Notes: generated by a model from the letters alone, not told the origin. 64,000 nt of DNA from a virus (IMGVR_UViG_3300009132_000005:3530-67529), one strand, 5' to 3'. Positions 17,081-48,076 are shown, numbered from the stretch's first letter. A program made the numbers and translations.

Positions 17081-20000
17081 TTAAGGGACGTAATCTAAAT
17101 CTACATCTATTGTAAATGATACATCTGATGTTGATGATATTACTTCGTCTGTTTTTGCTGTCCAAGTATAGTGTAAATCTTGTGATGGGGCTACGCCAAC
17201 TAAACTTGTTTTTGTAATTGTTAATTCTTGTGTTTGATGTATTGCTGAGCTAGATGCTGATGATATACTTAAAGTTATTTGCTGTAATGAGTTGCCATGG
17301 AAGTTACCATACATAACACCAGTACCACTTGTTAAACTAGTAAGTGATAAAGTACCAACATCTATAGCTTTTACATTTGTACCACTATTTCCATTACCAT
17401 CATTGTAACTAAACCTGTGATCACCTACTATTATACCACTTGCATCACCTGTTACTGTAACTGATAGTAATCTTGAACCACCACCAGATCCACCAGAAAC
17501 ACTAAGAAAATCGTTTAAAGGTAATGTACTAGTTAAATCGCCATCACCATACTTATTGATAAACATATCACCAGTTATTGTAACCGTTTTTGGTGACGCT
17601 GAGTTATTTATAGTAACAACAGGTAAGCCAAAATCTAATTCAAAATTGTTTGTAAATATAGAGTGATCTTCATCTGTTGGTGTTGATACAAAACCTGTAA
17701 AATCATCAATTTCAGGATCTCTAGTTTTACTTATATTGTTAGTAGCTGTAGCAGTTAAACTTAAAGCTATTTTTGAAAAGTCAGATCCTTCAACAGGATA
17801 TGCACTTGCTGTGTATGTTTTAGTTGCTGCGCTCGATGTTATTGTAAAATCAGCTGTTTGAGAAGCATTTAAGCTTACAGTAACGTCAGCAAATTGATTT
17901 ATATAAAATGGGTTTTGTACTACATTAGAAGAGTTGTATACATTTCCTTGTAAAACAGGATCTCCAGCACTTGAAGGAGTTATAGGTAATAAAGTAGTTT
18001 CGCCTATTGCTTCTATTTGTATGTAATATCTTCTAGTCACAGTAGTTTCTAAAAACGGTATTGTAACAGAGTAAACACCAGTTGATGGTATTTCTAAATT
18101 TGTTTCAGATCCAACAAACGTTGTACCGTTCCACCACTCTGTAAATGTTATTGTTGTGCTACTTATAGTCTGTGCACTTGAGAGCGTAACCGATGTACCA
18201 TTAACACTAACAACAGTAACAGTACCACTTATACCAGTACCTGTAACTAACATACCGTTGTGTATGTCATTGTTTGCAGCTGTAAGCGTTAAAGTTGTAC
18301 TTGAACCTGAAGTGCTAGCTGTTGAAGTTGTAGAGTTTTTAAATCTAAAATCTGCACCAACCGCACCAAAAACTTTTACTTCTTTATCTGTTGCAAATCT
18401 AGGAACAACATTACCATTAACAACTCTATATCCTGTAATTTTATTAGTATCTGCAGCATTTTCTAAAACAGAACTAGCGTTAAATATAATTTCATCATCA
18501 TTAGTATTAGATGCAGGATATTTATAACTTATGCTATACACACGTACGTGTACGTCTTCTAAAGTTTTACTATCTGATCCAATAGTTATGTTAGTATTAG
18601 TTGTATCTTTATCTTGAAAAGTAATTATGTATTCACTTTCTGGATCCTCATCTTGTCTTGTTATTTTAAAGTCTGGTTGTTCAGTAAAATTGTAACCAAG
18701 ATCTAATGTTAATGTAACTGTAGCTGCTAAAGTTGTAGATGTATAATTACTAGGTAAACCTGTAGCTGAGTTGGTTGGTTGAGCTGTAGCGTTACCAGAA
18801 CCAGCATAACTAATTACAGCAGTTACATTTGAATCTGTTTGTTCTTTTATATTAAGATCGTTTAATAAATATTGTTTTAAAACACCATCACCTGTAACAG
18901 CTAAACTTATAGTTAAATCACTACTAGGCATGTTAACACCATCTGTAAAGTTTATTGTTGCTATTACATTATCACCACTTTGAGCGAAAGCAACACTATC
19001 TACATAAGTTCCAGTAGTACCTACGCTAAGATCACCAGCTGTCAACGTGCTACCTGTATTTGGTGTTATTAATATAGTTATACTAGAATTTGTACTGTGT
19101 ATTTCTGTACCTATTGTAACGTCAAATGTAGCGCCTGGGTTTGTTGTATTAGCAATACCAGTTAAAGCTACATTAACGGTTCTATCAGCTAAAGAAGTAT
19201 CACCAGATATATTAGTTAGCTGACCAACACCTTGAACATTAAATTCAGTAGAATCTAAGTTAGCTAAAGTTGTTGCATCACCTTTTATATTATTATAATA
19301 TCTACCTTCTTTTTTCTTAAACTCTTTTACAAAACCTTGTTGTAAGTCAGTTTGTATATATTCAGTATACCAACCTTTGGTATTTGTAGATGTAGCATTA
19401 CCATAATCATTTGTATATACTCTAGAGGCAGAACCTCCATAGTTTAATGTTTTAAAGCCTTTAATTGTTTCAGGCATTTCGTTTATTAAAAACGTTACAG
19501 ATGAATCATATTGTACACCATAAAAATTATTTCTAGTATCATTAGTGTGAACGTGTAATTCACCATTTTTTATAGAATAATACTTATTATTTAAAGACAA
19601 AGCAGCTTCAGGTATAAATGATTTAAAACTAGGAAAACCTCTAACTTTTTCATCAAAAGAAACTGTTTGATCACTTAATGTTAAATTATATAAACCTTTT
19701 GAACCATCATAACTACCTAATATTAATGTTGAATTAGGTAATGTGTCTTTAAAAAAGTCTCTCATGCCATGCTCTGATATTGCTGATAAACCATCTCTTG
19801 ATAATCTTAATACAGCACCTCTTGATTTATCTACAAAATAACATCTATAAGCATACGATGAAAATGACTCAGGGTTTTGTGATATACCATATTCACCTAT
19901 AAAAGGTATTGTTTGGCCTAAAACTCTATTTGTTGCTGTTAATTGTGGATTACCACTAGCTTCAAACAAAGCGTCTTTATTAGCTAATACTTTTAAAACT

Positions 20001-23000
20001 TTATCTTCACAAAATACTATTAGATCTGTATTTCTAGCGTGTAACTTTTGTATACTACCGTAATGAGGATTAAGATCTTTTGTTATAGCTTCACCTTGTA
20101 TAAATTGATTTAATCTATTTACACCTGATGTTGAATTAAATATACCAGAGTATATTAAACCATTTTTTCTTCTTTCTTTTTTATATGGTTCATCTAAAAC
20201 AGCAGAAGCTTTAACACCTTTATCTATTCTAGGTGCGTTATAATCATCATTTATTCTATCAGACTCAACACCGTTACCAAAAGAGTAACAGTTTTTAAAA
20301 TCTAAAGCGTGTGTAGATCCGTGTTGTGCTATTGGTCTTGAAACACCTGTTTCAAAATATATATCTAAATCTACAGATTCTTTTGGCTCTGTTTCCCACA
20401 CAGCCGGGTTATCAGATGTTAATACTTCTACATCTGTTGTTATAACGTTTTGTAAAATTTGTATTTCATCTGCAAAATTAGAAGCACTACCTGATGAAGG
20501 ATATGTAAACGAGTCTTCATATGGTGTGCCATTTTTATAATGCTCAAAAGTTATATTATATTGTCTTCTTTTACTTGAAGCTAATCTTCTTCTGTTTCTT
20601 CTATATTTATATTCTATTTCACAAGCTGTAACTTTATATATTTCGCCTAAAGCATCAGTACTACTACCTTTAAATCTAAACAAAGTACCTGATGTACTTA
20701 TTGATTTTAAAAAATTATTTATAGTATTTGCTTTGTCAAAATCTTTACTACCAGACTTAGGCGATGCGGTATATAATATACGCATTGTATGAGATCCTAA
20801 TTTAGGATGCCCATTGTTAGCTTGTGTTATTTTTCTTCTTTTTGCCTCTGTATCAAACCAAGATGCTTCTTGTGTACCATCACCAGGTCCTGTGTTTTGT
20901 GCATTACCAAATATAGTTCTAGCATCCGATATACCATACTCTTCATCTTCATCTGGAAAAGATGCTATAATGTTTGTATCAAAATTACTATCTCTATTTA
21001 TTTTTACAAAAAACCTACCGTAAAACTCTGCTTTTCTTTCAAATTTCTCTTCAAAAAGTATTACGTCAAATTGAGTTCCAGAGCTTATAGTTGATACTAC
21101 CGTGTCACCAGTTTTTATAGGTTCAGCTAAAGTTATTTTATATATGTGTTTAAAACCTGTGCTACCAGTGCTATCTTCTTCACCTGTAGGACCACCACTT
21201 ACAACTTTATACTTGTCTGTTACAACACCACCTACAGATATTTGAATAACAGCATCAGAAGAAAAACCTTCACCAAAACTAGGATTTACTTGTGGATCTG
21301 GTCCTCTAAATTCAAAAGATATACTACCTACTTGAGGTATGTTAGATGATCTAGCTTTTACAGATCCATTACCTACAGCTCTTTGTTTTAATTTTAAAAA
21401 GTCAGGCGCATCATTAGATATATCTAATATTTTATATCTTGATTTAGTAGCTACAAACTCGTCAGAGTCATGTTTCTTTTTTAATATCAAATAAGTTTCT
21501 TCATCAACTTTGTTTCTTTCAGATGATGGAAAACTTAACCAAACATTACCATCTTCAGCTAGATAATATCTATCCATAGCTAAATTGTAATATTCGTTTG
21601 ATGTTTCTTTTATGTAGTATTTAAAATGTGTAGCCCAGTCTGGTGGCTGATTATTTAAAGTAACACTTATTGTATTTACTGTTTTTGCATAATCTTTACT
21701 AGTTTGTTTTGAAGCACTAGCACTAGTAAATACAGGTGATTGTCTATTATATTTATCTATATATACAACACCTGCTTGATATGTTCTTAATGATTTTAAT
21801 GATAACTCAGGTTCCTTTACTGTTGTTATACCAGACTGTGATATAGACATGCTAATATCAGGTAAGTTAAAATCAGGTATATCATAATTTTGTAAATAGT
21901 TACCATAAATAAGTCTGTTAGCTGTAACCTCTTGTGATAAAGCTTGTCTTGGTACGTTATCCCATGGCCTTAATATTTGATTAGGTTCTACAACTTTTGT
22001 AATTATTTCTGACTCTAACTTATACTCTGTTGGAAAAGTGCCATCAGAGGCATATTTAAGCGTGTCTACGACGTATATATTGTTGTTGTTTGACTCTTTA
22101 TATAATATATCAACTTTTTCTACATCAACAGGTCTTGATTCAGTTATATTTATTGTCAACTGTCTAAGGTTATTGATCATACCATCATTATAACCATCTG
22201 TAGATAAATATTCAAATGTGTCAGGTAAAAAAGCTAATTCACTAAAAGGAGAGAAAGTAGAATATTGTCCGTTATAATATTTCCATCTATAACCAAATCT
22301 TACAAACTTCTTTTCAAATAAAACACCTTCTTCACTCAATATAGCTTCCCATTGTAAAGGAACATAAGGTATTTCTACAGGAATACTTTGTATTGTACAT
22401 GTAAATACATTACTAGCGCTTATAGCGTTTATTAATAATTTTATTTCGTAAGTTTCTTGTTGACCAAGTTCTTCGTATACAGTTGTACAAGTTATTATAT
22501 CACCTACTAACCAATTAGGTAGAGGTGAAAATGTTAAAGATAAAGAAGTTCCAGCAGCTTTAGCAACACCTTCTGTATCTGTAAACGTTGTGTTAACAGC
22601 ATTACTTATACTAACACTGTTAGTACCAGTACCGTTACCACCTCTTGTAGAGCTACTCATTGTTAAAGTTGGAGCACTCATCGGCGCTAATTTAGCAACA
22701 GTTATATGTTCTTCTAAAAAAGCAGAAGCTGCAGATAATTCTGAGCTAGGTATTTTTTTACCTGTGTATTTTGTATGTGTTGTAAAATTATCAGCACAAC
22801 CAGATTTAAATACGTCTATTTCTATTTGTTTAGGTTCTTTTTCATTATCAGTCCACATTAATATATTTTCTAAAACATTTATACCAGTTATATATGTATT
22901 TGTTTTAAAATTTAATATATTGTTAGTATCAACTAATACAGGTGATATTATACCTTTTAAATCATCGTACTCAGCTATACAATCAGCTTCATCTGCTTTT

Positions 23001-23296
23001 ATAAACCAATATATTTTATCGTTTTCGTTATTTAATTTAGAACCAACACAAATAGCGTTTGTTAAACCAAAGCTAGTACCAGACCAATTACTGGTTATAC
23101 TTTGTGAGTTTGAATCATAAACTTTACCAATAACTTTAGTAGTACCTTTAATGTTTTGCACAGTGCCGACATCATCACCATCTGACGTTGACATTTCTAT
23201 ATTCAACGCGTCTCTGTATTCTCCATTAGGTACTAATCTCTCGTCCAGGTCTTTATTCATTTTACCTGATCGAAAATAATGTTTTATATCTGGCAT
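17081..23296 (-). CDS. Tail stabilization/nozzle protein (P22 gp10/crAss-like) with Ser/Thr-rich beta C-terminal extension
   Basis: GKMNKDLDERLVPNGEYRDALN N-terminus and NGVESDRI.DD.N, LIYSG, YGISQNPESF, RGAVLRLS.DG motifs. Confidence 0.75.
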   Translation of the reverse strand: MPDIKHYFRSGKMNKDLDERLVPNGEYRDALNIEMSTSDGDDVGTVQNIKGTTKVIGKVYDSNSQSITSNWSGTSFGLTNAICVGSKLNNENDKIYWFIKADEADCIAEYDDLKGIISPVLVDTNNILNFKTNTYITGINVLENILMWTDNEKEPKQIEIDVFKSGCADNFTTHTKYTGKKIPSSELSAASAFLEEHITVAKLAPMSAPTLTMSSSTRGGNGTGTNSVSISNAVNTTFTDTEGVAKAAGTSLSLTFSPLPNWLVGDIITCTTVYEELGQQETYEIKLLINAISASNVFTCTIQSIPVEIPYVPLQWEAILSEEGVLFEKKFVRFGYRWKYYNGQYSTFSPFSELAFLPDTFEYLSTDGYNDGMINNLRQLTINITESRPVDVEKVDILYKESNNNNIYVVDTLKYASDGTFPTEYKLESEIITKVVEPNQILRPWDNVPRQALSQEVTANRLIYGNYLQNYDIPDFNLPDISMSISQSGITTVKEPELSLKSLRTYQAGVVYIDKYNRQSPVFTSASASKQTSKDYAKTVNTISVTLNNQPPDWATHFKYYIKETSNEYYNLAMDRYYLAEDGNVWLSFPSSERNKVDEETYLILKKKHDSDEFVATKSRYKILDISNDAPDFLKLKQRAVGNGSVKARSSNIPQVGSISFEFRGPDPQVNPSFGEGFSSDAVIQISVGGVVTDKYKVVSGGPTGEEDSTGSTGFKHIYKITLAEPIKTGDTVVSTISSGTQFDVILFEEKFERKAEFYGRFFVKINRDSNFDTNIIASFPDEDEEYGISDARTIFGNAQNTGPGDGTQEASWFDTEAKRRKITQANNGHPKLGSHTMRILYTASPKSGSKDFDKANTINNFLKSISTSGTLFRFKGSSTDALGEIYKVTACEIEYKYRRNRRRLASSKRRQYNITFEHYKNGTPYEDSFTYPSSGSASNFADEIQILQNVITTDVEVLTSDNPAVWETEPKESVDLDIYFETGVSRPIAQHGSTHALDFKNCYSFGNGVESDRINDDYNAPRIDKGVKASAVLDEPYKKERRKNGLIYSGIFNSTSGVNRLNQFIQGEAITKDLNPHYGSIQKLHARNTDLIVFCEDKVLKVLANKDALFEASGNPQLTATNRVLGQTIPFIGEYGISQNPESFSSYAYRCYFVDKSRGAVLRLSRDGLSAISEHGMRDFFKDTLPNSTLILGSYDGSKGLYNLTLSDQTVSFDEKVRGFPSFKSFIPEAALSLNNKYYSIKNGELHVHTNDTRNNFYGVQYDSSVTFLINEMPETIKGFKTLNYGGSASRVYTNDYGNATSTNTKGWYTEYIQTDLQQGFVKEFKKKEGRYYNNIKGDATTLANLDSTEFNVQGVGQLTNISGDTSLADRTVNVALTGIANTTNPGATFDVTIGTEIHSTNSSITILITPNTGSTLTAGDLSVGTTGTYVDSVAFAQSGDNVIATINFTDGVNMPSSDLTISLAVTGDGVLKQYLLNDLNIKEQTDSNVTAVISYAGSGNATAQPTNSATGLPSNYTSTTLAATVTLTLDLGYNFTEQPDFKITRQDEDPESEYIITFQDKDTTNTNITIGSDSKTLEDVHVRVYSISYKYPASNTNDDEIIFNASSVLENAADTNKITGYRVVNGNVVPRFATDKEVKVFGAVGADFRFKNSTTSTASTSGSSTTLTLTAANNDIHNGMLVTGTGISGTVTVVSVNGTSVTLSSAQTISSTTITFTEWWNGTTFVGSETNLEIPSTGVYSVTIPFLETTVTRRYYIQIEAIGETTLLPITPSSAGDPVLQGNVYNSSNVVQNPFYINQFADVTVSLNASQTADFTITSSAATKTYTASAYPVEGSDFSKIALSLTATATNNISKTRDPEIDDFTGFVSTPTDEDHSIFTNNFELDFGLPVVTINNSASPKTVTITGDMFINKYGDGDLTSTLPLNDFLSVSGGSGGGSRLLSVTVTGDASGIIVGDHRFSYNDGNGNSGTNVKAIDVGTLSLTSLTSGTGVMYGNFHGNSLQQITLSISSASSSAIHQTQELTITKTSLVGVAPSQDLHYTWTAKTDEVISSTSDVSFTIDVDLDYVP

Positions 23297-33548: not shown

Positions 33549-33823
33549 TACTTAGATCTTCTTTCTGCAAAACCACTAAAAGCTTGTGGTTTATCATCTT
33601 CTTTTACTTTACCGTCAAGCATATTCTGCTCGTCTTCTATACGATTTAATATCTCGAATGCATCAAATATGGCGAGCTTTTTAGTAGCGGCAGCGTTCTT
33701 GAGTCTATCTGCTGAGATGTCATCATCAGTTTCCACAATCGGTTCTTTCGCGACTTTAACAAGTTCTTTGACTGCTTCATAACCAGCTTGGATTATACTC
33801 TTTTTCCTTTCCTTGATATTCAT
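33548..33823 (-). CDS. Putative terminase small subunit
   Basis: Helical 91-aa protein coupled directly upstream of terL. Confidence 0.45.
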   Translation of the reverse strand: MNIKERKKSIIQAGYEAVKELVKVAKEPIVETDDDISADRLKNAAATKKLAIFDAFEILNRIEDEQNMLDGKVKEDDKPQAFSGFAERRSK

Positions 33824-34382
33824 ATTTAATTGTAATTGAATTGCTAAATATTCTATATAATTTATCTTCGTCTATAACAAACTCATACTCTGTGTTAGGT
33901 TTAAACCCGACTAAATCACCAGGTTTTAAACCAGCTTCTGCTAAGTATTTATCACAATATTTTAATATACCAACCAAAGGTTGTTCTTTATCATCATTAA
34001 AAATATTATTAGACATAGACTCTATTGGTTTAACAAAACAAAAAGTATCATTTGCTTTCCAGGTATCGTTTGTTTTATATAAAAATATTTGATCTGGAAA
34101 AACAAAATACATATCATCTTTATAATATGATTTACTATCTTTTTCTCTACCTCTTATATCGTTCCACCTTCTAAAAACATTATGATGTACTATAACTATA
34201 TCACCAACTTTTATGTTTGTATCACCAACAGTTGGTGTAGATATAACTTCAGCATGTCTATTAACATATTGATGTGAAAAGTTTTCAGCGTTGAGTATTA
34301 ACTCTTTGTCGCCTACTTTCTTTTTGTTATTGTATCTATTATCATTTAAAGGTTTAACTATAAAGTTTAAAACACTTTTCAC
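33777..34382 (-). CDS. Tandem GroES-like co-chaperonin
   Basis: Two GroES-like units: FIVKP...AEVISTP...IKVGDIVIV and CFVKP...GILKY...LKPGDLVGF...YEF.I....YRI. Confidence 0.55.
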   Translation of the reverse strand: MKSVLNFIVKPLNDNRYNNKKKVGDKELILNAENFSHQYVNRHAEVISTPTVGDTNIKVGDIVIVHHNVFRRWNDIRGREKDSKSYYKDDMYFVFPDQIFLYKTNDTWKANDTFCFVKPIESMSNNIFNDDKEQPLVGILKYCDKYLAEAGLKPGDLVGFKPNTEYEFVIDEDKLYRIFSNSITIKYEYQGKEKEYNPSWL

Positions 34383-34929: not shown

Positions 34930-35829
34930 TTACTTCTTTTTGTCAGGTGAAGCTATATACCAGTTTTTATACTTTTCTCTTTTAGCACAAATATACTCAA
35001 TATACTTATCTACTTTTGTTTTCCAGTCCTTGTCTATAGCTGGATTTATTATACCAGACTTATAACTAGAAAATGTTTTATCAACATAATGTTTTATATT
35101 ATCTTGATGATGATATAAAAAATTATTTATACAATAAAAAGATCCCATACGTATATTGTTCCAAACATCTACAGGTTCTATTGTTTTACCTAAAACACCA
35201 GCAAATAAAGGGCTTTCGCTTATATGTGTAGAGTAAACACCTTTTGCTTTCTGCATGTAATAATACATGTCTACGTTTTTAGGTAATATATTTTCTTCAC
35301 CAAAGAAATCTTTTAGTTCACCTATAATTTGATGTGTTGTTATAGGGTGTGGTTTAAAATAAACATTATTACCATGTTTATTAACTATATGTTTTAATCT
35401 ATTTAAACATACATTTTCTCTTAACTTGTTAGATCCTGGTAAAACTATTAAATAATCTTTAGCAGGGTATCTTTCTAAGTCTTCTTCTCTATCTTGATAT
35501 TTATTAGCGTTGCTATCAACAACTTTTTTAACTAACCAAGATGAATAATCTAACACTTTTGTATCTTTATCATACCAAGCATCTAGCATTTGTTCATTAC
35601 GCATTTTAAAATTTAGTGGCTGTAAATAAAAATTACCTGCGTACTCGGTATATGCTAGCGTTTTAAAGTATGGCATTTCTTCTGCCATAACATCATAACT
35701 GTGTTCTAAACCGTTTTCGCCACACTTTCTTATAACATAACCTTCAACTTGTTCTAAGTCGTATAAGCTGTTATTTTTTTTAAGAGGGCCTATTCGCTTT
35801 CTAAGCTCCTCTTTGTTAAACATTTCCAT
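34930..35829 (-). CDS. GT-B glycosyltransferase-like protein (KpsS/KpsC or sialyltransferase-like)
   Basis: LIVLPGS, VYFKPHP (HP motif), then AKGVYSTHISES...GVLGK, as in CMP-sugar GT-B C-terminal domains. Confidence 0.55.
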   Translation of the reverse strand: MEMFNKEELRKRIGPLKKNNSLYDLEQVEGYVIRKCGENGLEHSYDVMAEEMPYFKTLAYTEYAGNFYLQPLNFKMRNEQMLDAWYDKDTKVLDYSSWLVKKVVDSNANKYQDREEDLERYPAKDYLIVLPGSNKLRENVCLNRLKHIVNKHGNNVYFKPHPITTHQIIGELKDFFGEENILPKNVDMYYYMQKAKGVYSTHISESPLFAGVLGKTIEPVDVWNNIRMGSFYCINNFLYHHQDNIKHYVDKTFSSYKSGIINPAIDKDWKTKVDKYIEYICAKREKYKNWYIASPDKKK

Positions 35830-35888: not shown

Positions 35889-37499
35889 TTACTCGTTATT
35901 GCCTTGGAAAGGATTAGTACCAAGCTGTCCAAATTGATTAAAATTCTGATAATAACCTGTATTTGTTGAGTAAACAGTTGTAAATGTAGTAGTAGTACTG
36001 TATATTGTTGTTGTACTTGTGCTAGTATTATAGTTTGTTGATATACTTGTTGGCACTGTAGTACCAAAGCTAGTAATTGTGTTAGTACTTGTGTTATAAG
36101 TAGTAGTGGTACCGGTTGTAGTATTATACGCTGTAGTTGTAGCTGTATTGTATACTGTTGTTGTACTCTTACTAGTTAAAGTACTAGTATTAAACGTTGT
36201 TGTAGTAGATTTACTAGTGGTCTTAGATGTTGAAGTACTAGTATTGTACTGTGTTATAGTAGGTTTACTAGTTATAGTAGACGTATTAAACGTTGTTGTA
36301 TAAATAGTAGTTGTATCTTTAGAAGTACCATGAGATGTATTTCTATTTGTACTATATGTTGTATTTCTTTGTGTTGTGGTACTAGTGTTATACGTAGTAG
36401 TATAAGCTGTAGTAGTATTTTTATTAGTACTATATGTTGTAGTTCTACTTTCTTGAGTTGTAGTAGAAGTGTTAAACGTTGTTGTAGTACTAGTGTTATA
36501 TACAGTTATAGTTATTGTATCTGTTGTTCTACTAGTACTTCTAATAGTCTGAGCTGTACCAAAAGTTAACTTCATTGTTATTTGATACGTAGTATATACT
36601 GTGGTAGTACTAGTGTTAAATGTTGTTGTTGTGCTTGTACTAGTATTAAATGTTGTTGTCGTATTATATACTGTTAAAGTAGACGTATTAAAAGTTGTTG
36701 TAGTGTTGTTGTTAGTACTTACTGTAGTGTTTCTTTGTTCAGTAGTATTCTTGTTAGTACTCCATGTAGTATTAAATACTGTTGTTGTACTTGTATTAAA
36801 CACGGTATTAGTAGTATACGTAGTAGTTGTAGCTGTATTATAAACAGTTGTTGTTTGTGTACTAGTGTTGTAAGTAGTAGTTGTGTTGTTATTTGTACTT
36901 ACCGTTGTATTTCTTTGCTCTGTTGTATTTTTAAATGTAGCATAAGTAGTATTAAAAGTAGTTAGAGTAGAAGTGTTAAACGTCGTGGTAGTCGTATAAG
37001 TAGTTGTAGTAGCTGTATTGTATATTGTATTTGTACTAGTACTTGTGTTAAAATAAGTTGTTGTTTCATGATTAGTACTAACTGTAGTATTTCTTTGTTC
37101 AGTAGTGTTTTTGTTTGTAGAGTAAGTTGTATTTCTACTAGTAGATCTAGAGGTATTATAAGTTGTTGTAGTTGTATAAACAGTAGTAGTTGACGTATTA
37201 TACGTAGTAGTTGTAGTTTTAGTTGTATTAAATGTTGTACTAGTAGTATAAGTTGTCGTAGTGTTTCTACTTTCTGTAGTGTTTTTGCTAGTAGCAAAAG
37301 TAGTTGTAGTGTTTCTTGACTCAGTAGTATTTCTTGATTCAGTAGTATTTTTTGACGTTAAATAGTAAGTAGTCCAATAAGTAGTATATGCAGTAGTAGT
37401 ACTTCTTGATTCACCAGTGTTTTTACTAGTCGATCTAGAGGTATTACGTATAGTACTCGCAGATGTCGGTCTTGTTGTGTTTCTACTTGTATTTGGCAT
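35889..37499 (-). CDS. Thr-rich repeat protein A (536 aa)
   Basis: Uninterrupted ORF, Thr approaching half of residues. (Y/F)NT(S/T) repeats; KNTTEQRNTTVSTN recurs three times at 60-aa spacing. Confidence 0.75.
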   Translation of the reverse strand: MPNTSRNTTRPTSASTIRNTSRSTSKNTGESRSTTTAYTTYWTTYYLTSKNTTESRNTTESRNTTTTFATSKNTTESRNTTTTYTTSTTFNTTKTTTTTYNTSTTTVYTTTTTYNTSRSTSRNTTYSTNKNTTEQRNTTVSTNHETTTYFNTSTSTNTIYNTATTTTYTTTTTFNTSTLTTFNTTYATFKNTTEQRNTTVSTNNNTTTTYNTSTQTTTVYNTATTTTYTTNTVFNTSTTTVFNTTWSTNKNTTEQRNTTVSTNNNTTTTFNTSTLTVYNTTTTFNTSTSTTTTFNTSTTTVYTTYQITMKLTFGTAQTIRSTSRTTDTITITVYNTSTTTTFNTSTTTQESRTTTYSTNKNTTTAYTTTYNTSTTTQRNTTYSTNRNTSHGTSKDTTTIYTTTFNTSTITSKPTITQYNTSTSTSKTTSKSTTTTFNTSTLTSKSTTTVYNTATTTAYNTTTGTTTTYNTSTNTITSFGTTVPTSISTNYNTSTSTTTIYSTTTTFTTVYSTNTGYYQNFNQFGQLGTNPFQGNNE

Positions 37500-37500
37500 C

Positions 37501-38055
37501 TTAACTTATTGTTTCACCAGATATTGGTATTATTATTCTACCACCTGATTTTAAATTACTATTATAATTATTAACTAAATTTGTTTTATGATCTTGAGAT
37601 ATATCATCTGGCTCAGCCCATAAATCACATATAATTATATCATACTGCTTACTCAATGTGTGAGTAAACTCATTACCGTTAATAACATTAATATCACTAT
37701 TAATCCAATTAACAACTTCTATTATTTCAGCATCACTTTCTATAACATCTATACTCGTAATACCTTTGTTTATTTTTATATATTCTGGTAATAAACCTAA
37801 ACCTAAACCTAAAACTAATATATCACCCCACGTAGCTCCATTGTATTGAGTGTTTGTGTCATTAAAACCACAATCATTACAATCACCAGCTCTTATTTTA
37901 GCTGTTACCTCTGCATTATAAAATCTATGCACCACATCTGTTTTATATTTTAATTCAGATATAATATATTCTTCATTATCACTATTTACTTTAGTTACTT
38001 TATTTATTTCAAAGTTAGTTCCGTCGTGTGCAGGTATTAAGTTTTCGTTTATCAT
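37501..38055 (-). CDS. Class I SAM-dependent methyltransferase (spermidine-synthase-like)
   Basis: DILVLGLGLG (motif I), IDVIE, YDIIICD, LKSGGRII. Confidence 0.75.
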   Translation of the reverse strand: MINENLIPAHDGTNFEINKVTKVNSDNEEYIISELKYKTDVVHRFYNAEVTAKIRAGDCNDCGFNDTNTQYNGATWGDILVLGLGLGLLPEYIKINKGITSIDVIESDAEIIEVVNWINSDINVINGNEFTHTLSKQYDIIICDLWAEPDDISQDHKTNLVNNYNSNLKSGGRIIIPISGETIS

Positions 38056-38059
38056 AATA

Positions 38060-40138
38060 TTAAATTTGTTTAAATTCTACATCAACTTCTTCCATGCCAT
38101 AATCAACCCATTGATACCCACAAGAGTTTATTATAACTGCTCCGTCAATATGTTCAATTTCGTCGGCTATAACACCTTGCCATACACCTTTACCATATTT
38201 TTCATCTTTAAATTTAAATGAATATATGTTTAATCCTTTTGGTGATACACCTATCAGCTTAATATCTTTCTTTAATCTTCTGTCCGAGAAACCACCTCCA
38301 CCAGAACATTGGTCAAGAGAAATTACTCCACCAGCTCCACCACTTGTTCTATATTTGTGCGATGGACTAAAACCTGAAGCGTTTGTTGCACCATACCAAG
38401 CATCACTTAATGCCGAAGTACCACTAGAATTTGTATACACAAAACTACTTACTTGTGGTAATCCATTAGAAACGTTTGTTCCATAGTACGTGTTTGTAAT
38501 AAACTCACTACACACGAACATAAAACTACTTGCGCCTGTAGACGCAAAAGATGTAAGTGACGCTGCTGTACTATAAGTTGTTACGTATGTTGTAATAAAC
38601 GTAGTTGTAAAAGTTGTAGCATACGTTGTGTTATAAGTAGTTGTCGTGTTATAAGAAGTTGTGGTAGCTTTAGAAGTACCTCTACTTGTTCCACGACTTG
38701 TTGTATATACAGTACTAGTTGTATAAGTAGTAGTTGTAGTATAAACAGTTGAAGTAGCTTTACTAGTATTAAAAGTCGTACTAGTTGTGTAGGTAGTAGT
38801 TGTACTTCTACTCTCTGTCGTGTTTCTACTAGTTGCGAACGTAGTTGTAGTAGCTCTACTAGTAGACACTGTTGTGGTTCTACTCTCTGTAGTGTTTTTG
38901 CTTGTTGCAAATGTTGTAGTAAACGTAGTTAACGTAGACGTATTAAATACAGTATTCGTTGTGTAAACAGTTAACGTAGACGTATTGTAAATAGTTGTTG
39001 TTTTATGATTAGTACTATAAGTAGTTGTTGTATTTTTATTTGTACTAACTGAAGTTGTTCTACTCTCTGTCGTATTTTTACTAGTAGCATATGTAGTATT
39101 TCTACTTGTCGAGGTACTAGTATTATATGTTGTTCTAGTAGTATATATTGTAAGCGTTGTTGTGTTGTATACTGTATTAGTACTTTTACTAGTTGATGAT
39201 GTTTCTGTTGTACTTTTACTAGTTGATACAACGGTGCTTCTTGACTCTGTCGTATTTTTATTAGTTGATACTGTAGTAACTCTACTTGTACTAGTACTAG
39301 TGTTAAACACTGTGTTGGTTGTATACACGGTTAACGTGGTTGTATTATAAACAGTGTTAGTTGATCTGTTAGTGCTAAAGGTTGTGGTTCTTTGCTCTTG
39401 GGTAGATTTACTTGTAGAAAATACTGTTGTAGTGTTTTTTGAAGTTGATATAGTAGTTGTTTTACTAGTTGTTGTACTAGTATTATATATAGTAGCTGTT
39501 TCTTTTAATGTATTACCTAGAAATGTATTATAAGTTGTTGTAAATACAGTTTGTGTATCTTTCATCGTAGAAACTACCGTACTTCTTGAAGTAGAAAAAA
39601 CAGTACTTGTAGAATATACAGTTATGGTACTAGTATTATATACAGTATTAGTTGTTTTTGTAGTTACAGTAGATGTGTTGTAGGTTGTTGTAAAAACTGT
39701 TAAAGTAGATGTATTAAATACCGTATTAGTACTAGTATTATAAGCCGTTATAGTTATAGTGTTTGTACTTCTACTTGTAGAAAATGTAGTAGTATATACA
39801 GTCGTTGTAGTAGTACTTGTATTATAAGCAGTTGATGTGCTTGTGTTGTACCTTGTTGTAGTAGAAGTACTAGTATTGTATGTAGTGTTAAAAGCAGTTG
39901 TTGTAGACTTACTAGTACTAACTACCGTGCTAGTAGTAGTATTATAAGCTGTGGTAGTAGATGTACTCGTATTAAATGTAGTCGTTGTACTTTTAGTAGT
40001 AGCTGTGCTTGTGTTAAACACAGTTGATGTACTTGTATTAAATACAGTAGTTGTTGACTTAGATGTACTTGTAGATCTATTTGTAGACCTGTTAGTACTC
40101 TTGCTCCAAAAAACGATCTTACTCCACAGGAAATTCAT
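38060..40138 (-). CDS. Thr-rich repeat protein B with C-terminal peptidase S74 intramolecular chaperone
   Basis: KNTTESR units at 60-aa spacing. C-terminal FSDRRLKKDI...IYSFKF...GVIADE...VDY is the S74 signature. Confidence 0.8.
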   Translation of the reverse strand: MNFLWSKIVFWSKSTNRSTNRSTSTSKSTTTVFNTSTSTVFNTSTATTKSTTTTFNTSTSTTTAYNTTTSTVVSTSKSTTTAFNTTYNTSTSTTTRYNTSTSTAYNTSTTTTTVYTTTFSTSRSTNTITITAYNTSTNTVFNTSTLTVFTTTYNTSTVTTKTTNTVYNTSTITVYSTSTVFSTSRSTVVSTMKDTQTVFTTTYNTFLGNTLKETATIYNTSTTTSKTTTISTSKNTTTVFSTSKSTQEQRTTTFSTNRSTNTVYNTTTLTVYTTNTVFNTSTSTSRVTTVSTNKNTTESRSTVVSTSKSTTETSSTSKSTNTVYNTTTLTIYTTRTTYNTSTSTSRNTTYATSKNTTESRTTSVSTNKNTTTTYSTNHKTTTIYNTSTLTVYTTNTVFNTSTLTTFTTTFATSKNTTESRTTTVSTSRATTTTFATSRNTTESRSTTTTYTTSTTFNTSKATSTVYTTTTTYTTSTVYTTSRGTSRGTSKATTTSYNTTTTYNTTYATTFTTTFITTYVTTYSTAASLTSFASTGASSFMFVCSEFITNTYYGTNVSNGLPQVSSFVYTNSSGTSALSDAWYGATNASGFSPSHKYRTSGGAGGVISLDQCSGGGGFSDRRLKKDIKLIGVSPKGLNIYSFKFKDEKYGKGVWQGVIADEIEHIDGAVIINSCGYQWVDYGMEEVDVEFKQI

Positions 40139-40150
40139 ATAATAAAATTA

Positions 40151-41068
40151 TTATTGCGGGTAGCTGGCGAATCCAGATACGTAGTTGATTAATACTTTTG
40201 TAGATGTGGCTATAAAATAAGTCATTACAGCTATTCCATTGCTACCTGACCCAAATGTTATAGCACTTCCACCTGGCGTATAAGCTGTGTTTGGTAAAGC
40301 TGGATCGTCCCAACTAATAAAATTTGTAGATACTACATTGGGATTATTTATTATAATAGTACCAGACTGACCAACATTACTAGCAATGTTTGAAAAACTA
40401 ATACTGTGATCAACAAATGATTCATTAACAACTGTGCATATATAATAATTAGTTTTAACATCAAAGTCTATAGCAAAAACACCACTACTATGAGTTATTG
40501 TTGTTGCGCCTTGACCTTGAAAACTAAAATCACCGTAAATATGAAGATCTGCATCTTGTGAAGTACTACCTATTTCAACTAGAGAATCACCGTCCATGTT
40601 TGGCAACTTCAGAACTCTAACAGCAGCTCCACCATTTTGATTGTGACTCCAAAATTCAGCAGTACCAGAACTGTTACCATCATAATCGAACTGTAAACTA
40701 GTATTAGTACCAGATATATAAGGACCATATGTAGTTGCTTCGGCACCGTCGTTTCTAAGGTGTATTATTCCATCAACTTTTAAGTCTTCTTTTGTTCTTA
40801 TGTCTTTTTCAAACGTAACTTTTTGATCACTCTCAACAGTCATAGCTAACGTGTTTCCAGTATTTAATTTTAAAGTACCAGAAGCTGTTGTTAGCTCGTG
40901 AGCAGATGCACTAGCGGTTATTCTTAAATCATAATCATCAGAGTTTGGAGCTTTTAAATCAATAATACCTCCACTGTTACCACCAATTTCTAATTGACCA
41001 TACCCAGTTCCACCATCTACAAGTATCTGGCCTTTTACGTCTATATTTCCTAAAATTGGTATTGCCAT
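40151..41068 (-). CDS. Tail fibre/receptor-binding protein
   Basis: GGIIDLKAPNSDDYDLRI fibre motif, beta-rich C-terminal domain, MAIPIL N-terminus. Confidence 0.65.
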   Translation of the reverse strand: MAIPILGNIDVKGQILVDGGTGYGQLEIGGNSGGIIDLKAPNSDDYDLRITASASAHELTTASGTLKLNTGNTLAMTVESDQKVTFEKDIRTKEDLKVDGIIHLRNDGAEATTYGPYISGTNTSLQFDYDGNSSGTAEFWSHNQNGGAAVRVLKLPNMDGDSLVEIGSTSQDADLHIYGDFSFQGQGATTITHSSGVFAIDFDVKTNYYICTVVNESFVDHSISFSNIASNVGQSGTIIINNPNVVSTNFISWDDPALPNTAYTPGGSAITFGSGSNGIAVMTYFIATSTKVLINYVSGFASYPQ

Positions 41069-41132: not shown

Positions 41133-43169
41133 TTACGAAGTTGGGTAAGTAGGTGTAACTGCAGTAGCTCCTTTTATTGAGGTGATATTAACCTCTACAT
41201 CTGAAGGAGGTGCAGCAGCAAACTTAACATATATATTATCATTACTGTCAGTTGATCCATCAGAAGTACATTCCCAGTCGATAATACAATTTCCGTAATC
41301 TGTTGTACTATCATCATTTTTTAATTGAGCCGTTACTAATAAATCAGTAGTACCTAAACCGTGGTTTATTACAGCTGATAACTGTGTAGCATGCAACGAA
41401 GCAGTTAATATAGTAGCTACAACTGATTTAGCAGCTAATGTATCAGGTGTTATAACTCTACTTTGATCAGTACCAGCTCTAACTTCAGCAGCAGTTGCTA
41501 ATTCAACCACACCTTGGTTTATTGCTGTAGCTTCTTCAGCAGCGATAGTTGCAGTACCATTAGAATAAGCAACATCAATGTGATCACCAGCAGCAACAAT
41601 TACAATACCTTTGTTTGTTGCACTTGAATCTTCACCAGCAATAGTTACTGTGTTAGCACCATCATCGTTAGTAACGTCAATACCTTCACCAGCAGTTATT
41701 ACAGCACCAATTCTATCATTTATTACTTCTGCTATTGCAACACCACCAAGTGTTAAAGCATCTGTTTCTAAAGTACCATCAACATCAACATCACCTGATA
41801 TATCAAGATTAGTAAATACTGAAGTACCTGTAGCTGTAAGTATACCCGTTACATCAACTGGATGTGAAAATACAAATTTATCACCTGCAGCGTTCCAAGT
41901 CATACTAGCATCAGTAGAAGCATCTACAGCATCTTGAATAGTAATACCAGCGCCGTCAGCAGTTGAACTTGAATCACCTGATGATTTATTTACTGTTATG
42001 TTTTTATCTTCAACATCTAATGTTCCAACGTTTGCTGTAATAGTATCACCTGATACAGTTAAATTACCACTAACCGTTAAATTTTCGGCAATAGTAATGC
42101 TATTTGCTAACTTAGCTCCTGTTACCGCATCATCAGCAATGTGAGCAGTATCAATAGATCCATCTACATAGTGTTCTGAATCAATTTGGTCATCTGCTAT
42201 CTTAGCGTTTGTAATCGCATCGTCCGCGATTTTTGCTGTAGTAACATTAGCATCTGTAATCTTTGCTGTTGTAACTGCATTAGTTGCTAACTTAGCGGTT
42301 GTAACATTTGCATCAGTGATTTTTGCAGTAGTTACAGCGTCATCAGCAAGCATAGCTGTTGCAACTTGAACTTCAGCAACTATACCGTCTGCTGATGTAG
42401 AACCTAATACTCTATTTGCTGTTGCAACGTTTTGTATTTTAGCATACGTTACTTGATCAGCTCCTATATGTGCTGTATCAATCGATCCGTCAACATATTG
42501 GTCAGAATCTACTGAGTTAGCCGCCATTTTAGCTAACGTAACGTTTGCATCAGCTATTTTAGCAGTTGTTACGCCTGCATCGTTTATTTTTGCAGTAGTA
42601 ACAGCAGAGTCAGCTATTTTAGCCGTAGTAACGTTAGCATCAACTATACTAGCTGTAACAACAGCATCTGAAGCTAAGTTATCAGCATCAACCGAATCAT
42701 CAGCAAGCATTGAGTGAACAATATCACCAGCTCCAATTACAAAGTCTAAGTTACCATTTGCATCGTCATAAGATACAGATATACCAGTCTCAGTACCATC
42801 AAGCATTCCACCAACATAGTCTTCAACTTGTTCTTGTGTTAATGTGCTGTTAGCTGATATTGTAACTACACCACCAGCTTCTGATAAAGTAACACCAGTT
42901 CCTTTTTTAAGAACTAAATCTTCTGATAATTCTAAAGTGTTATTAACGGATCCGTCTCCGTTTGTATCAATGGCAACCGTTCTAGTACCACCACCGGATG
43001 CTAGCGTTAGCCATGTTGATCCGTTGTATACCTTAACCGAGCCAGAGTCATAAATAATTTGCCCCGTCCCCGGTGAAGTCACATCACCTGAACCAGTCGT
43101 ATGGAGCAGTACGTTTTGGATTTCCGCTGATTTTTGGAAATCCATGTGATTTAAAATAGGTATTGCCAT
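41133..43169 (-). CDS. Tail fibre protein with VTTAKIAD 10-aa repeats
   Basis: Many (A/N)VTTAKI(A/T)D repeats, GNLTVSGDT...VEDKNI, GVVELATAAEV..G and HGLG motifs. Confidence 0.75.
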   Translation of the reverse strand: MAIPILNHMDFQKSAEIQNVLLHTTGSGDVTSPGTGQIIYDSGSVKVYNGSTWLTLASGGGTRTVAIDTNGDGSVNNTLELSEDLVLKKGTGVTLSEAGGVVTISANSTLTQEQVEDYVGGMLDGTETGISVSYDDANGNLDFVIGAGDIVHSMLADDSVDADNLASDAVVTASIVDANVTTAKIADSAVTTAKINDAGVTTAKIADANVTLAKMAANSVDSDQYVDGSIDTAHIGADQVTYAKIQNVATANRVLGSTSADGIVAEVQVATAMLADDAVTTAKITDANVTTAKLATNAVTTAKITDANVTTAKIADDAITNAKIADDQIDSEHYVDGSIDTAHIADDAVTGAKLANSITIAENLTVSGNLTVSGDTITANVGTLDVEDKNITVNKSSGDSSSTADGAGITIQDAVDASTDASMTWNAAGDKFVFSHPVDVTGILTATGTSVFTNLDISGDVDVDGTLETDALTLGGVAIAEVINDRIGAVITAGEGIDVTNDDGANTVTIAGEDSSATNKGIVIVAAGDHIDVAYSNGTATIAAEEATAINQGVVELATAAEVRAGTDQSRVITPDTLAAKSVVATILTASLHATQLSAVINHGLGTTDLLVTAQLKNDDSTTDYGNCIIDWECTSDGSTDSNDNIYVKFAAAPPSDVEVNITSIKGATAVTPTYPTS

Positions 43170-46270: not shown

Positions 46271-46515
46271 TCTACCAAGACTACGTCCTTTATTGTTATA
46301 ACCTGATATTCATTATCTTGCCAATTTATACTATGGCCAGCATGTTTATCATAGTGTACTATATCATTATCACATACTCCTTGCACTAAATTACCTATTG
46401 TCACAACTTTTCCTTTAGAATATCTACTTTCTTCGTCTTTTATTATTAAACCAGCTACCTTTTTAGGTTCTTGCTTAATATTTTCTATCACTATATAATA
46501 ATTAACTGCTCGCAT
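46267..46515 (-). CDS. groES: Co-chaperonin GroES
   Basis: KKVAGLII mobile loop, GKVVTIG, DIVHYDKHAG, DVVLV. Adjacent to groEL. Confidence 0.85.
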   Translation of the reverse strand: MRAVNYYIVIENIKQEPKKVAGLIIKDEESRYSKGKVVTIGNLVQGVCDNDIVHYDKHAGHSINWQDNEYQVITIKDVVLVE

Positions 46516-48076
46516 TGTCTAATCTTATGTTTGAAATTATACAATCTGCAGAAAATATTGTTTTTGCGACGCTAACTGCATTTTTTAGCGCTGTTTTTGT
46601 AACTAAAGCAGGATCTACTATACCAGAGTCAACCATTTTTACTAGTTTTCCACAAGTTACGTCAAATCCCATGCCTTTTTTATCAGGAATATCATAATTT
46701 TCTATACCTGCGTTGTCCATTATGGTAAAAAATGGCGATTTTATAGAATTTACTATTATTTCTTCACCAATATTTTTAGGTTTTATACTTTTTGCTGCAT
46801 TTAACAGACAAATTCCACCACCTGGAACAATACCTTCTTGTAAAGCTGCTTTAACAGCGTAAATAGCATCCTCAACTCTATCTTTTTTCTCTTTTAATTC
46901 AATTTTAGAGTTAGCACCAACCTTTATAACACCAACAGAACCGCTTAACATAGCTAATCTTTCTTGTAATTTCTTTTTAAAGAAAGGATCTTTGGTTTCA
47001 GGTATCTTTTTTTCTATTTCTTTTACCCTGCTTTCAACATCTTCGTTTAAAACGCCAGTTGTAAGGACTGTAGTTCTGTTATCTGTTACAGATTTCACTA
47101 CTTCACCTAAACAATCTGGCTGGATTAGATCGAGATCGTCTCCTAGTTCTTCATCTATTACTCTAGCACCAGTTAAAAGTGCTAAATCTTCAATAGTATC
47201 TCTTTTTCCTGCACCAAAACCAGGTGTATCAACAATATTTACTTTAATATTGCCTTTAACCTTGTTCATTAATAGTGCAGATTTTACTTGTGTGCTAACA
47301 GAAGCTACAATAAGTAGCGATCTGTTTTGCTTTATTACATGTTCTAATACATTTTGTATCTTTCTAATACTAGGTATTTCCGATGCAACTATTAATATGT
47401 ATGGATTTTCAAGCTCACATAGCTGTCTATCCTTATTTGTCATAAAATGAGGTGATGTTAGTTTAGAAGCTATTTGCACTCCTTCAACAATATCAGCATA
47501 AGTTACATCAGTTTCGCTCTCTTCCATCAAAACTACACCATCTTTACCTACTTTATTATATGTACTAGCTATTAGTTCACCTAATTCTTTATCATTATTA
47601 CAGCTTATTACTGAAACATGATTTAAAGTTTCACCGGTAACAGGTGTTGTATTGTCATTTATATACTCTACTACTTTTTCGTAACCTGACTGTATACCTT
47701 CTTTTATATTTCTTACACTTTCTTGTTCATACTCAGCATTACTAAATGCATTTTGTAATAGTGATTCAGCAAGGACGATAGCTGTAGTAGTACCGTCACC
47801 TGCTTCTTTCACTGTGTTTTTAGAAGCTTCTTTAATTAAAGTAGCACCTATATTCTCAACTGGATCAAATAATACTACAGAGTCTGCTACTGTAACACCA
47901 TCTTTTGTAACCAGTGGTCTACCGAAAGTGTCTTCATATATAACACACTTACCGGAAGCTCCTAGGGTAGATTTAACAGCTCTCGCTAGTTTATCTACAC
48001 CTTTCATAATTTTACCTTTAGCATCGACGCCAAAGTTAAGATCTTTTACGATCTCGCTTGGTTGACTATATTCCAT
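46502..48076 (-). CDS. groEL: Chaperonin GroEL
   Basis: VKSTLG..G, TKDGVTVA, AGDGTTTA, PGFG, KDRVEDA, GIVPGGG, GIVDP. Confidence 0.97.
   Translation of the reverse strand: MEYSQPSEIVKDLNFGVDAKGKIMKGVDKLARAVKSTLGASGKCVIYEDTFGRPLVTKDGVTVADSVVLFDPVENIGATLIKEASKNTVKEAGDGTTTAIVLAESLLQNAFSNAEYEQESVRNIKEGIQSGYEKVVEYINDNTTPVTGETLNHVSVISCNNDKELGELIASTYNKVGKDGVVLMEESETDVTYADIVEGVQIASKLTSPHFMTNKDRQLCELENPYILIVASEIPSIRKIQNVLEHVIKQNRSLLIVASVSTQVKSALLMNKVKGNIKVNIVDTPGFGAGKRDTIEDLALLTGARVIDEELGDDLDLIQPDCLGEVVKSVTDNRTTVLTTGVLNEDVESRVKEIEKKIPETKDPFFKKKLQERLAMLSGSVGVIKVGANSKIELKEKKDRVEDAIYAVKAALQEGIVPGGGICLLNAAKSIKPKNIGEEIIVNSIKSPFFTIMDNAGIENYDIPDKKGMGFDVTCGKLVKMVDSGIVDPALVTKTALKNAVSVAKTIFSADCIISNIRLDNASS

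Follow-up and report, generated by a model that had tools for sequence, protein, structure and literature searches.

The stretch of viral DNA analyzed here, IMGVR_UViG_3300009132_000005:3530-67529 (64,000 nucleotides; the window), covers nearly all of a podophage-like genome of 67,529 bp that lies on one contig, and it encodes two Thr-rich proteins, A and B, which complement each other in sequence when one of them is read backwards. Protein A, defined by its open reading frame (ORF) and translation, spans 35889-37499 and consists of 536 amino acids (aa), 44.6% of them Thr; protein B spans 38060-40138 and has 692 aa with 34% Thr. Both lie on the minus strand, as does every gene and protein segment of the window that is given coordinates below. 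The mirror fit delimits a pairing part in A (residues 1-526), beyond which the final ~10 residues overhang B. In B, a Thr-rich pairing region (residues 1-527; 38558-40138) with one parity shift near B195-215 is followed by a conserved non-repeat distal domain without partner in A (residues 528-617; 38288-38557) and by a Peptidase_S74 intramolecular chaperone domain carrying S618-D-R-R-L-K623 (residues 618-692; 38063-38287).

Repeats, register, and codons of A and B

An initial annotation of this DNA had proposed a 60-residue repeat shared by A and B, and this periodicity holds up against shuffled controls: judged against 300 shuffles of the same composition, the autocorrelation of each protein is highest at lag 60 (z 11.2 for A, 10.4 for B). 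The motif reported to recur three times in A, KNTTEQRNTTVSTN, is indeed found at A130, A190, and A250, where it begins each of three 60-residue units (residues 130-309; 36573-37112). KNTTESR, the motif reported for B, recurs at the same spacing at B294, B354, and B414, and KNTT occurs additionally at B234, the units beginning with KNTT extending over residues 234-473 (38720-39439). Equally borne out are the even spacings claimed for aromatic or basic residues followed by Asn: [YFWKR]N spacings are even in 43 of 43 cases in A and in 28 of 29 in B, where the sole odd spacing, one of 15, falls at the register shift at B203. The top 20 autocorrelation lags are even in A and in B alike, and mean identity in A amounts to 0.301 at even lags compared with 0.197 at odd lags.

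Underlying the 60-residue period is a two-residue register, in which positions of class a (T, Y, F, W, K, R, E) alternate with positions of class b (T, S, N, V, I, L, A, Q). The register is continuous in A from residue 1 to ~530, with 263 of 292 informative residues conforming; in B it undergoes a single shift near 195-215 and is elsewhere continuous to ~512. The shift lies in a hinge of B (residues ~191-216, STMKDTQTVFTTTYNTFLGNTLKETA; 39491-39568). A Thr-poor hinge is present in A as well (residues ~305-325, YQITMKLTFGTAQTIRS...; 36525-36587); the pairing offset shifts there by one residue, and this hinge is kept among close A orthologues. Sub-unit lengths vary irregularly in both proteins, measuring 6, 8, 10, 14, 18, and more residues.

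Repeat units are 60-77% identical at the amino-acid level, whether compared inside A, inside B, or across the two proteins, and 66-70% identical in their DNA. Codon agreement at identical residues corresponds to chance expectation from codon usage (between A130 and A190, 46 residues are identical and 21 share the codon, with 21.1 expected), in agreement with the earlier remark that synonymous codons differ between copies. Since synonymous sites between copies are randomized, the repeats must be old and maintained by selection acting at the protein level. The common period does not stem from recent gene conversion, which was ruled out: synonymous sites are saturated, and A resembles orthologous A proteins more closely than its own B. 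The two proteins are old paralogues without recent homogenization. The ordered beta structure under selection that had initially been envisaged therefore stands in part: the register over ~520 residues, the old repeats, and purifying selection speak for strand-like order, but the irregular sub-unit lengths (6, 8, 10, 14) leave a regular, Thr-laddered solenoid unsupported. GC skew is positive (+0.22, +0.16) solely across the two Thr-rich genes (window positions 36000-40000), a consequence to be expected of ACN codons in minus-strand genes; the same ACN-driven composition also yields spurious Val/Leu-rich ORFs on the strand opposite A and B.

Reverse complementarity of A and B

Comparison of reversed A with B brings 47 aromatic-basic pairs together at one gap-free offset (z 11.6). 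Over all offsets the mean is 6.1 such pairs with a standard deviation (sd) of 3.9; the runner-up reaches 22 and the forward maximum 21 (z 4.4). The mirror fit consists of two segments, with offsets of -10 and -9, that switch at the hinge: residue x of A stands opposite residue 528-x of B for A1-318, and opposite 527-x for A319-526. Among the resulting 526 facing pairs, 31 of the 34 basic residues of A are opposite an aromatic residue of B and 35 of the 39 basic residues of B opposite an aromatic residue of A (observed/expected 8.6-9.1). Basic-acid pairs number 0 and T-T pairs 151 (1.48-fold). Of the acids, 9 of 11 and 7 of 8 have Thr across from them; the partners of Asn are Ser, Asn, Val, or Thr, and small polar or aliphatic residues are paired with one another. 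The KNTTEQR copies of A stand opposite F/Y-x-T-x-T-T-Y of B at B398-392, 338-332, and 278-272, and the KNTTESR copies of B opposite (F/Y)xTxTTY of A at A234-228, 174-168, and 114-108. In each of the three 60-residue units of A, the K..R stretch lies across from F/Y..Y of B, at B398-385, 338-325, and 278-265. The two proteins would thus have the 60-residue period in common because the K..R motif of one chain must meet the Y/F..Y of the other. Residues of class a are opposite class a and those of class b opposite class b; a constant x+y with equal parity is therefore present at the level of sequence, for a pairing that is itself predicted.

When 40-residue segments of A are mapped on B, their order is anti-colinear (Spearman rho -0.74). 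At the level of blocks, A and B of the window comprise two blocks only, so that rotation and mirror order are indistinguishable there, and global A-B alignments are uninformative because of low complexity. Antisense coding as the origin of the mirror relation was ruled out: no minus-strand (antisense) DNA similarity was found between the A and B genes, and the reverse complement of a Thr codon is not a Thr codon.

Relatives were traced through the 299-aa and 184-aa proteins encoded beside A and B, which yielded 65 IMG/VR loci, some of them on the same contigs. Wherever the contig extends far enough, a second Thr-rich (B-type) ORF lies further upstream. The Thr-rich proteins range from ~350 to 1,661 aa, with a register continuous up to ~1,650 residues, and their main long period varies by phage (28, 36/46, 48, 58, 60, 70, 94, 96/98, 34/68, 116). 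In the closest relatives, which have other dominant lags, A and B measure 525/684 and 500/663 aa, i.e., they are 11/8 and 36/29 residues apart from the proteins described here. Homologue lengths had been expected to change in multiples of 60 aa, which is not seen; since periods vary as well, from 28 to 116 among relatives, the 60-residue period is no structural constant but a property of this phage.

Within one phage, A and B have like period spectra (mean r 0.65, compared with 0.10 between phages), and the lengths of their Thr-rich cores agree with r 0.999 over 296-1182 aa, the largest difference being 22. The reversed peak is sharp in 20 of 20 distinct A/B pairs (z 6.6-15.9; forward z at most 4.4), rho is below zero in 18 of these 20 in the 40-residue maps, and the cognate B is the top partner for 19 of the 20 A proteins, the exception being a near-identical phage. 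In cross-phage fits close relatives remain at background, even with a 299-aa protein that is 89% identical. Self-complementarity is weak beside the A/B fit, and self scores count each pair twice. A particularly clear case is the L058 clade, where six Thr-poor landmarks in A (period 96) and six in B (period 98) occur in mirrored sequence, with blocks of corresponding size (154/157, 384/391, 236/237, 338/351); circular permutation was ruled out for this clade, as no block rotation yields such an order. Smoothed multi-channel composition profiles were not discriminating (the reversed alignment won in 13 of 20 cognate pairs and in 35 of 70 non-cognate ones), and the comparison of T-content profiles was also weak; among the mirror tests, the residue-level aromatic-basic count alone is decisive. 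The mirror relation is one at the protein level, kept by compensatory change. Of the in-register co-assembly of A and B suggested by the initial annotation, the cognate-specific fit supports the partnership, but the fit is antiparallel (x+y 528/527) and not parallel.

Chaperone domain, putative companion enzymes, and genomic setting

The C-terminal domain of B is recognized by Pfam as PF13884 at residues 618-664, with a narrow margin (E 8.8e-5; score 23.2 bits, gathering cut-off 22), and the region also matches phrog_6121. All 11 B-type sequences compared have S618, R620, and K623 unchanged; the alignment of these 11 C-termini also reveals invariant C, Y, L, and other residues in the distal domain. 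A Ser-Lys dyad is known from endosialidase work, with the Ser at the cleavage site and the Lys five residues on, to which S618 and K623 would be equivalent. Peptidase_S74-type domains, according to the literature on them, are trimeric, assist fibre folding, and cleave themselves off, and are tied to triple beta-helix folding. A ~75-residue C-terminal module of this kind (SDRxLKK...VDVEFKQI) also ends Q/A/N-rich, coiled-coil-looking proteins (homologues of B520-692, P0004-P0022); it is therefore shuffled among fibre types of marine phages. A tblastn search of B against phage records matched only the C-terminal 63 residues, because the low-complexity filter masks the remainder. In the L023 clade, the B-type protein (L023:2545-4713) has no Peptidase_S74 domain and ends in eight Gly followed by CGRGCQ.

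Downstream of A lies the gene for a 299-aa protein resembling glycosyltransferases of the GT-B fold (34930-35829), the nearest folds being those of Kdo (3-deoxy-D-manno-octulosonate) transferases and sialyltransferases. Each of the 51 loci that reach 500 nucleotides (nt) or further upstream has a Thr-rich ORF ending no more than 200 nt before this gene. The AlphaFold2 (AF2) model of the 299-aa protein has a mean predicted local distance difference test (pLDDT) score of 71.8 and a predicted template modelling (pTM) score of 0.72. By VIA-align it is closest to polysialyltransferase 5wc6 (Z 10.7), WbbB (9.0), and KpsC (8.8 over 226 residues), and KrkA and sialyltransferases of glycosyltransferase (GT) family GT80 are also among its best fold matches. 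GT-B enzymes head both fold searches, including that with Foldseek, which points to the two-Rossmann GT-B fold, although Z values of 8-10.7 may also come from a shared arrangement. K159-P-H-P162 is invariant, with H161-P162 present in 15 of 15 sequences. An HP motif binds cytidine monophosphate-N-acetylneuraminic acid (CMP-Neu5Ac) in bacterial sialyltransferases of families GT38, GT52, and GT80 (PMC2169525). The D/E-D/E-G motif of sialyltransferases, described in the same paper, does not appear among the invariant residues of the 299-aa protein. The protein belongs to no Pfam family, a profile search against the Protein Data Bank (PDB) gave no match, and none of the 404 protein clusters related to it is named. 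No nucleotide-sugar synthesis genes were detected by Pfam among the 25 phage ORFs scanned.

Between B and A, both here and at related loci, sits a gene for a 184-aa class-I methyltransferase-like protein (37501-38055; phrog_15480, E 1.4e-4), whose Pfam matches to MTS and Spermine_synth are below cut-offs. In the L023 clade, a 350-aa protein (L023:4744-5796) with sub-threshold methyltransferase and Hint/intein matches is encoded between the Thr-rich genes.

Cultured Caulobacter phages encode distant homologues, 21-26% identical to the 299-aa protein, where a short Thr-alternating protein (BL198 gp046, L067:5321-5974; Lullwater gp41, L069:2321-2968; Cr30, L068:4620-4970) directly precedes the homologue and separates it from a tail-fibre gene. 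The short proteins of BL198 and Lullwater are self-complementary in reverse with respect to aromatic-basic pairs, the peaks reaching 18 and 20 where the mean is ~3.2-3.3 (sd 2.6-2.8). Accordingly, the Caulobacter protein could be a single-chain hairpin, i.e., a fold-back form of the ladder proposed below for A and B.

The order of genes on the minus strand is GroEL-like, holin, two tail-fibre-type genes, B, the 184-aa gene, A, the 299-aa gene, GroES-like, terminase, portal, and further structural genes. The two tail-fibre-type genes directly upstream of B (41133-43169 and 40151-41068) encode a common N-terminus, MAIPIL(G/N), that is probably a common attachment module; within this pair, only the product of 41133-43169 has tail-fibre PHROG matches. 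The GroEL-like chaperonin gene lies at 46502-48076 (phrog_5725, E 7.7e-138) and that for the 201-aa GroES-like protein, near the fibre cassette, at 33777-34382 (phrog_13932). The structural module contains giant ORFs of 2,819 aa (6187-14646), without PHROG match at E <= 1e-5, and 2,071 aa (17081-23296). The genome ends overlap by 119 bp, and there is a single tRNA-Met. The nearest relatives of the large terminase are an uncultured Caudoviricetes record (62.5%) and, below 60%, Flavobacterium, Cellulophaga, and Tenacibaculum phages.

A proposed two-chain fibre, rival readings, and known systems

It seems fairly probable that A and B each supply one strand of a single fibre, built as an antiparallel two-chain beta ladder. 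The geometry of such a ladder has x+y constant and side chains of equal parity, strict two-residue alternation is required for it, and a Thr-rich alternating sequence suits long strands. A and B would run antiparallel, head-to-tail, as a very long and thin two-stranded ladder, one face of which would carry the aromatic-basic and Thr-Thr pairs and the other Asn, Ser, and Val. The code of aromatic-basic, Thr-Thr, and acid-Thr pairs would set the register along the whole length, like base pairing in nucleic acid. The unpaired C-terminus of B would provide a distal domain, followed by the Peptidase_S74 chaperone, which would trimerize and cut itself off at S618; by analogy with that domain, three A:B ladders per fibre are suggested. 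The 184-aa methyltransferase-like and 299-aa GT-B-like proteins, whose activities are predicted, probably modify the fibre or aid its assembly, and the position of the cassette suggests a virion fibre for adsorption. The more general proposal, for which the chances appear about even, is that of a sequence-addressed duplex: chains of 300 to >1,100 residues held by an antiparallel side-chain code, diversified as lineage-specific compensated pairs, decorated or zipped by companion enzymes, and represented in Caulobacter podophages by a single ~217-residue protein that folds back on itself.

Several points weigh against such a ladder. Thirteen of the 55 aromatic residues of A are opposite Thr instead of a basic residue, a trimerizing chaperone on B is in tension with a 1:1 A:B duplex, and gene position is the one source of the proposed association with the virion. 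Neither the AF2 monomer model of A (pLDDT 31) nor the ESM Atlas model (pLDDT 0.19), whose structure rows all have TM scores of at most 0.33, has a usable fold, though monomer prediction cannot test a two-chain form. To our knowledge, a ~500-residue two-stranded ribbon without a hydrophobic core has no solved precedent. A complex prediction for three copies of B400-692 (score 0.01, mark 0.42) speaks neither for nor against the proposal. In the AF2 monomer model, long strands are confined to a hairpin around the hinge of A (E294-311 and E327-344; window ~36468-36620), with a pLDDT below 50 that makes them not interpretable. Searches of A and B against PDB sequences with phmmer gave no matches, and full-text literature searches, including one on Cellulophaga phages, yielded no description of mirror-paired proteins of this kind.

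A rival reading is that A and B form parallel in-register beta structures, either as a triple beta-helix or solenoid each or by parallel co-assembly, and that the period reflects a common coil geometry. B ends in Peptidase_S74, which the literature ties to trimeric fibres and triple beta-helix folding, and even-length units with small residues on one face could fit a triple beta-helix. This reading is nevertheless unlikely, since the forward A-B comparison is peakless (21, z 4.4) where the reversed one reaches 47 (z 11.6), block order is mirrored (rho below zero in 18 of 20 pairs), sub-units are irregular with super-periods of 28-116 among relatives, and A lacks a trimerization domain. The initial annotation had also raised the possibility that the Thr arrays form a face for binding ice or minerals, like that of some antifreeze and ice-nucleation proteins. 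Ice-nucleation repeats resemble such alternating, hierarchically periodic arrays, and the TxT-like alternation with its hierarchical even periodicity is all that recommends the idea, which we find scarcely credible. Neither Pfam nor phmmer against the PDB returned a sequence or family match, coil length is variable, and in place of a one-face TxT ladder of constant coils there are spacings of 6-18 and more and super-periods of 28-116. Thr is moreover found on both faces, most class-a Thr stands opposite Thr of the partner chain, and the cassette is located among phage tail-fibre genes.

A disordered mucin had been dismissed at the outset, and rightly so insofar as disorder leaves the mirror fit unexplained, but mucin-like modification is compatible with the data, as a GT-like gene always follows A. 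That A and B might be extended, mostly disordered, heavily glycosylated stalks without an A:B duplex, comparable to the serine-rich repeat adhesins of bacteria, in which alternation serves the transferase, would agree with their 34-45% Thr, with the missing monomer fold, and with the GT-B-like gene placed after A in 51 of 51 loci, whose product has a fold like Kdo- and sialyl-transferases. However, such stalks are an unlikely explanation: they account neither for cognate-specific mirror complementarity and the length match (r 0.999) nor for regular conserved aromatic and basic residues and repeats kept despite saturated synonymous sites, and glycosylation of a folded ladder is compatible with the antiparallel two-chain fibre.

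The phage fibres known so far are homotrimers with parallel chains, for instance coiled coils, triple beta-helices, and beta-spirals. If true, the antiparallel two-chain fibre with a readable residue code would constitute a new principle of fibre construction and a natural case of register control across hundreds of residues, which is relevant to protein design. Marine viral contigs contain the cassette in abundance, and it may therefore shape how a common marine phage group meets its hosts. With companion enzymes so constantly present, the fibres of phages that infect Gram-negative bacteria might be glycosylated or methylated. A small version is at hand in cultured Caulobacter phages.

The 299-aa protein shares a GT-B-like predicted fold with the retaining beta-Kdo transferases KpsC, WbbB, and KrkA and with the HP-motif (poly)sialyltransferases, to whose HP motif its invariant His-Pro may correspond. 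It differs from Kdo- and sialyl-transferases in having neither a sequence-level match in Pfam or the PDB nor a recognizable D/E-D/E-G motif, and its activity is putative. Serine-rich repeat proteins alternate residue by residue and occur beside dedicated GT-B-fold glycosyltransferases; they are single chains exported by bacteria. These adhesins are, like A and B, long, rich in hydroxy amino acids, alternating, and encoded next to a GT-B-fold enzyme, but unlike A and B they are not known as mirror pairs and have no aromatic and basic residues at regular positions. K1F endosialidase, the T5 L-shaped fibre protein pb1, and MYRF resemble B in their C-terminal PF13884 domain, which in B bears an invariant S-x-R-x-x-K after the distal domain. 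Cleavage and a trimer are only predicted for B, and whereas Peptidase_S74 fibres are parallel homotrimers, B instead offers ~527 residues that are reverse-complementary to a second protein.

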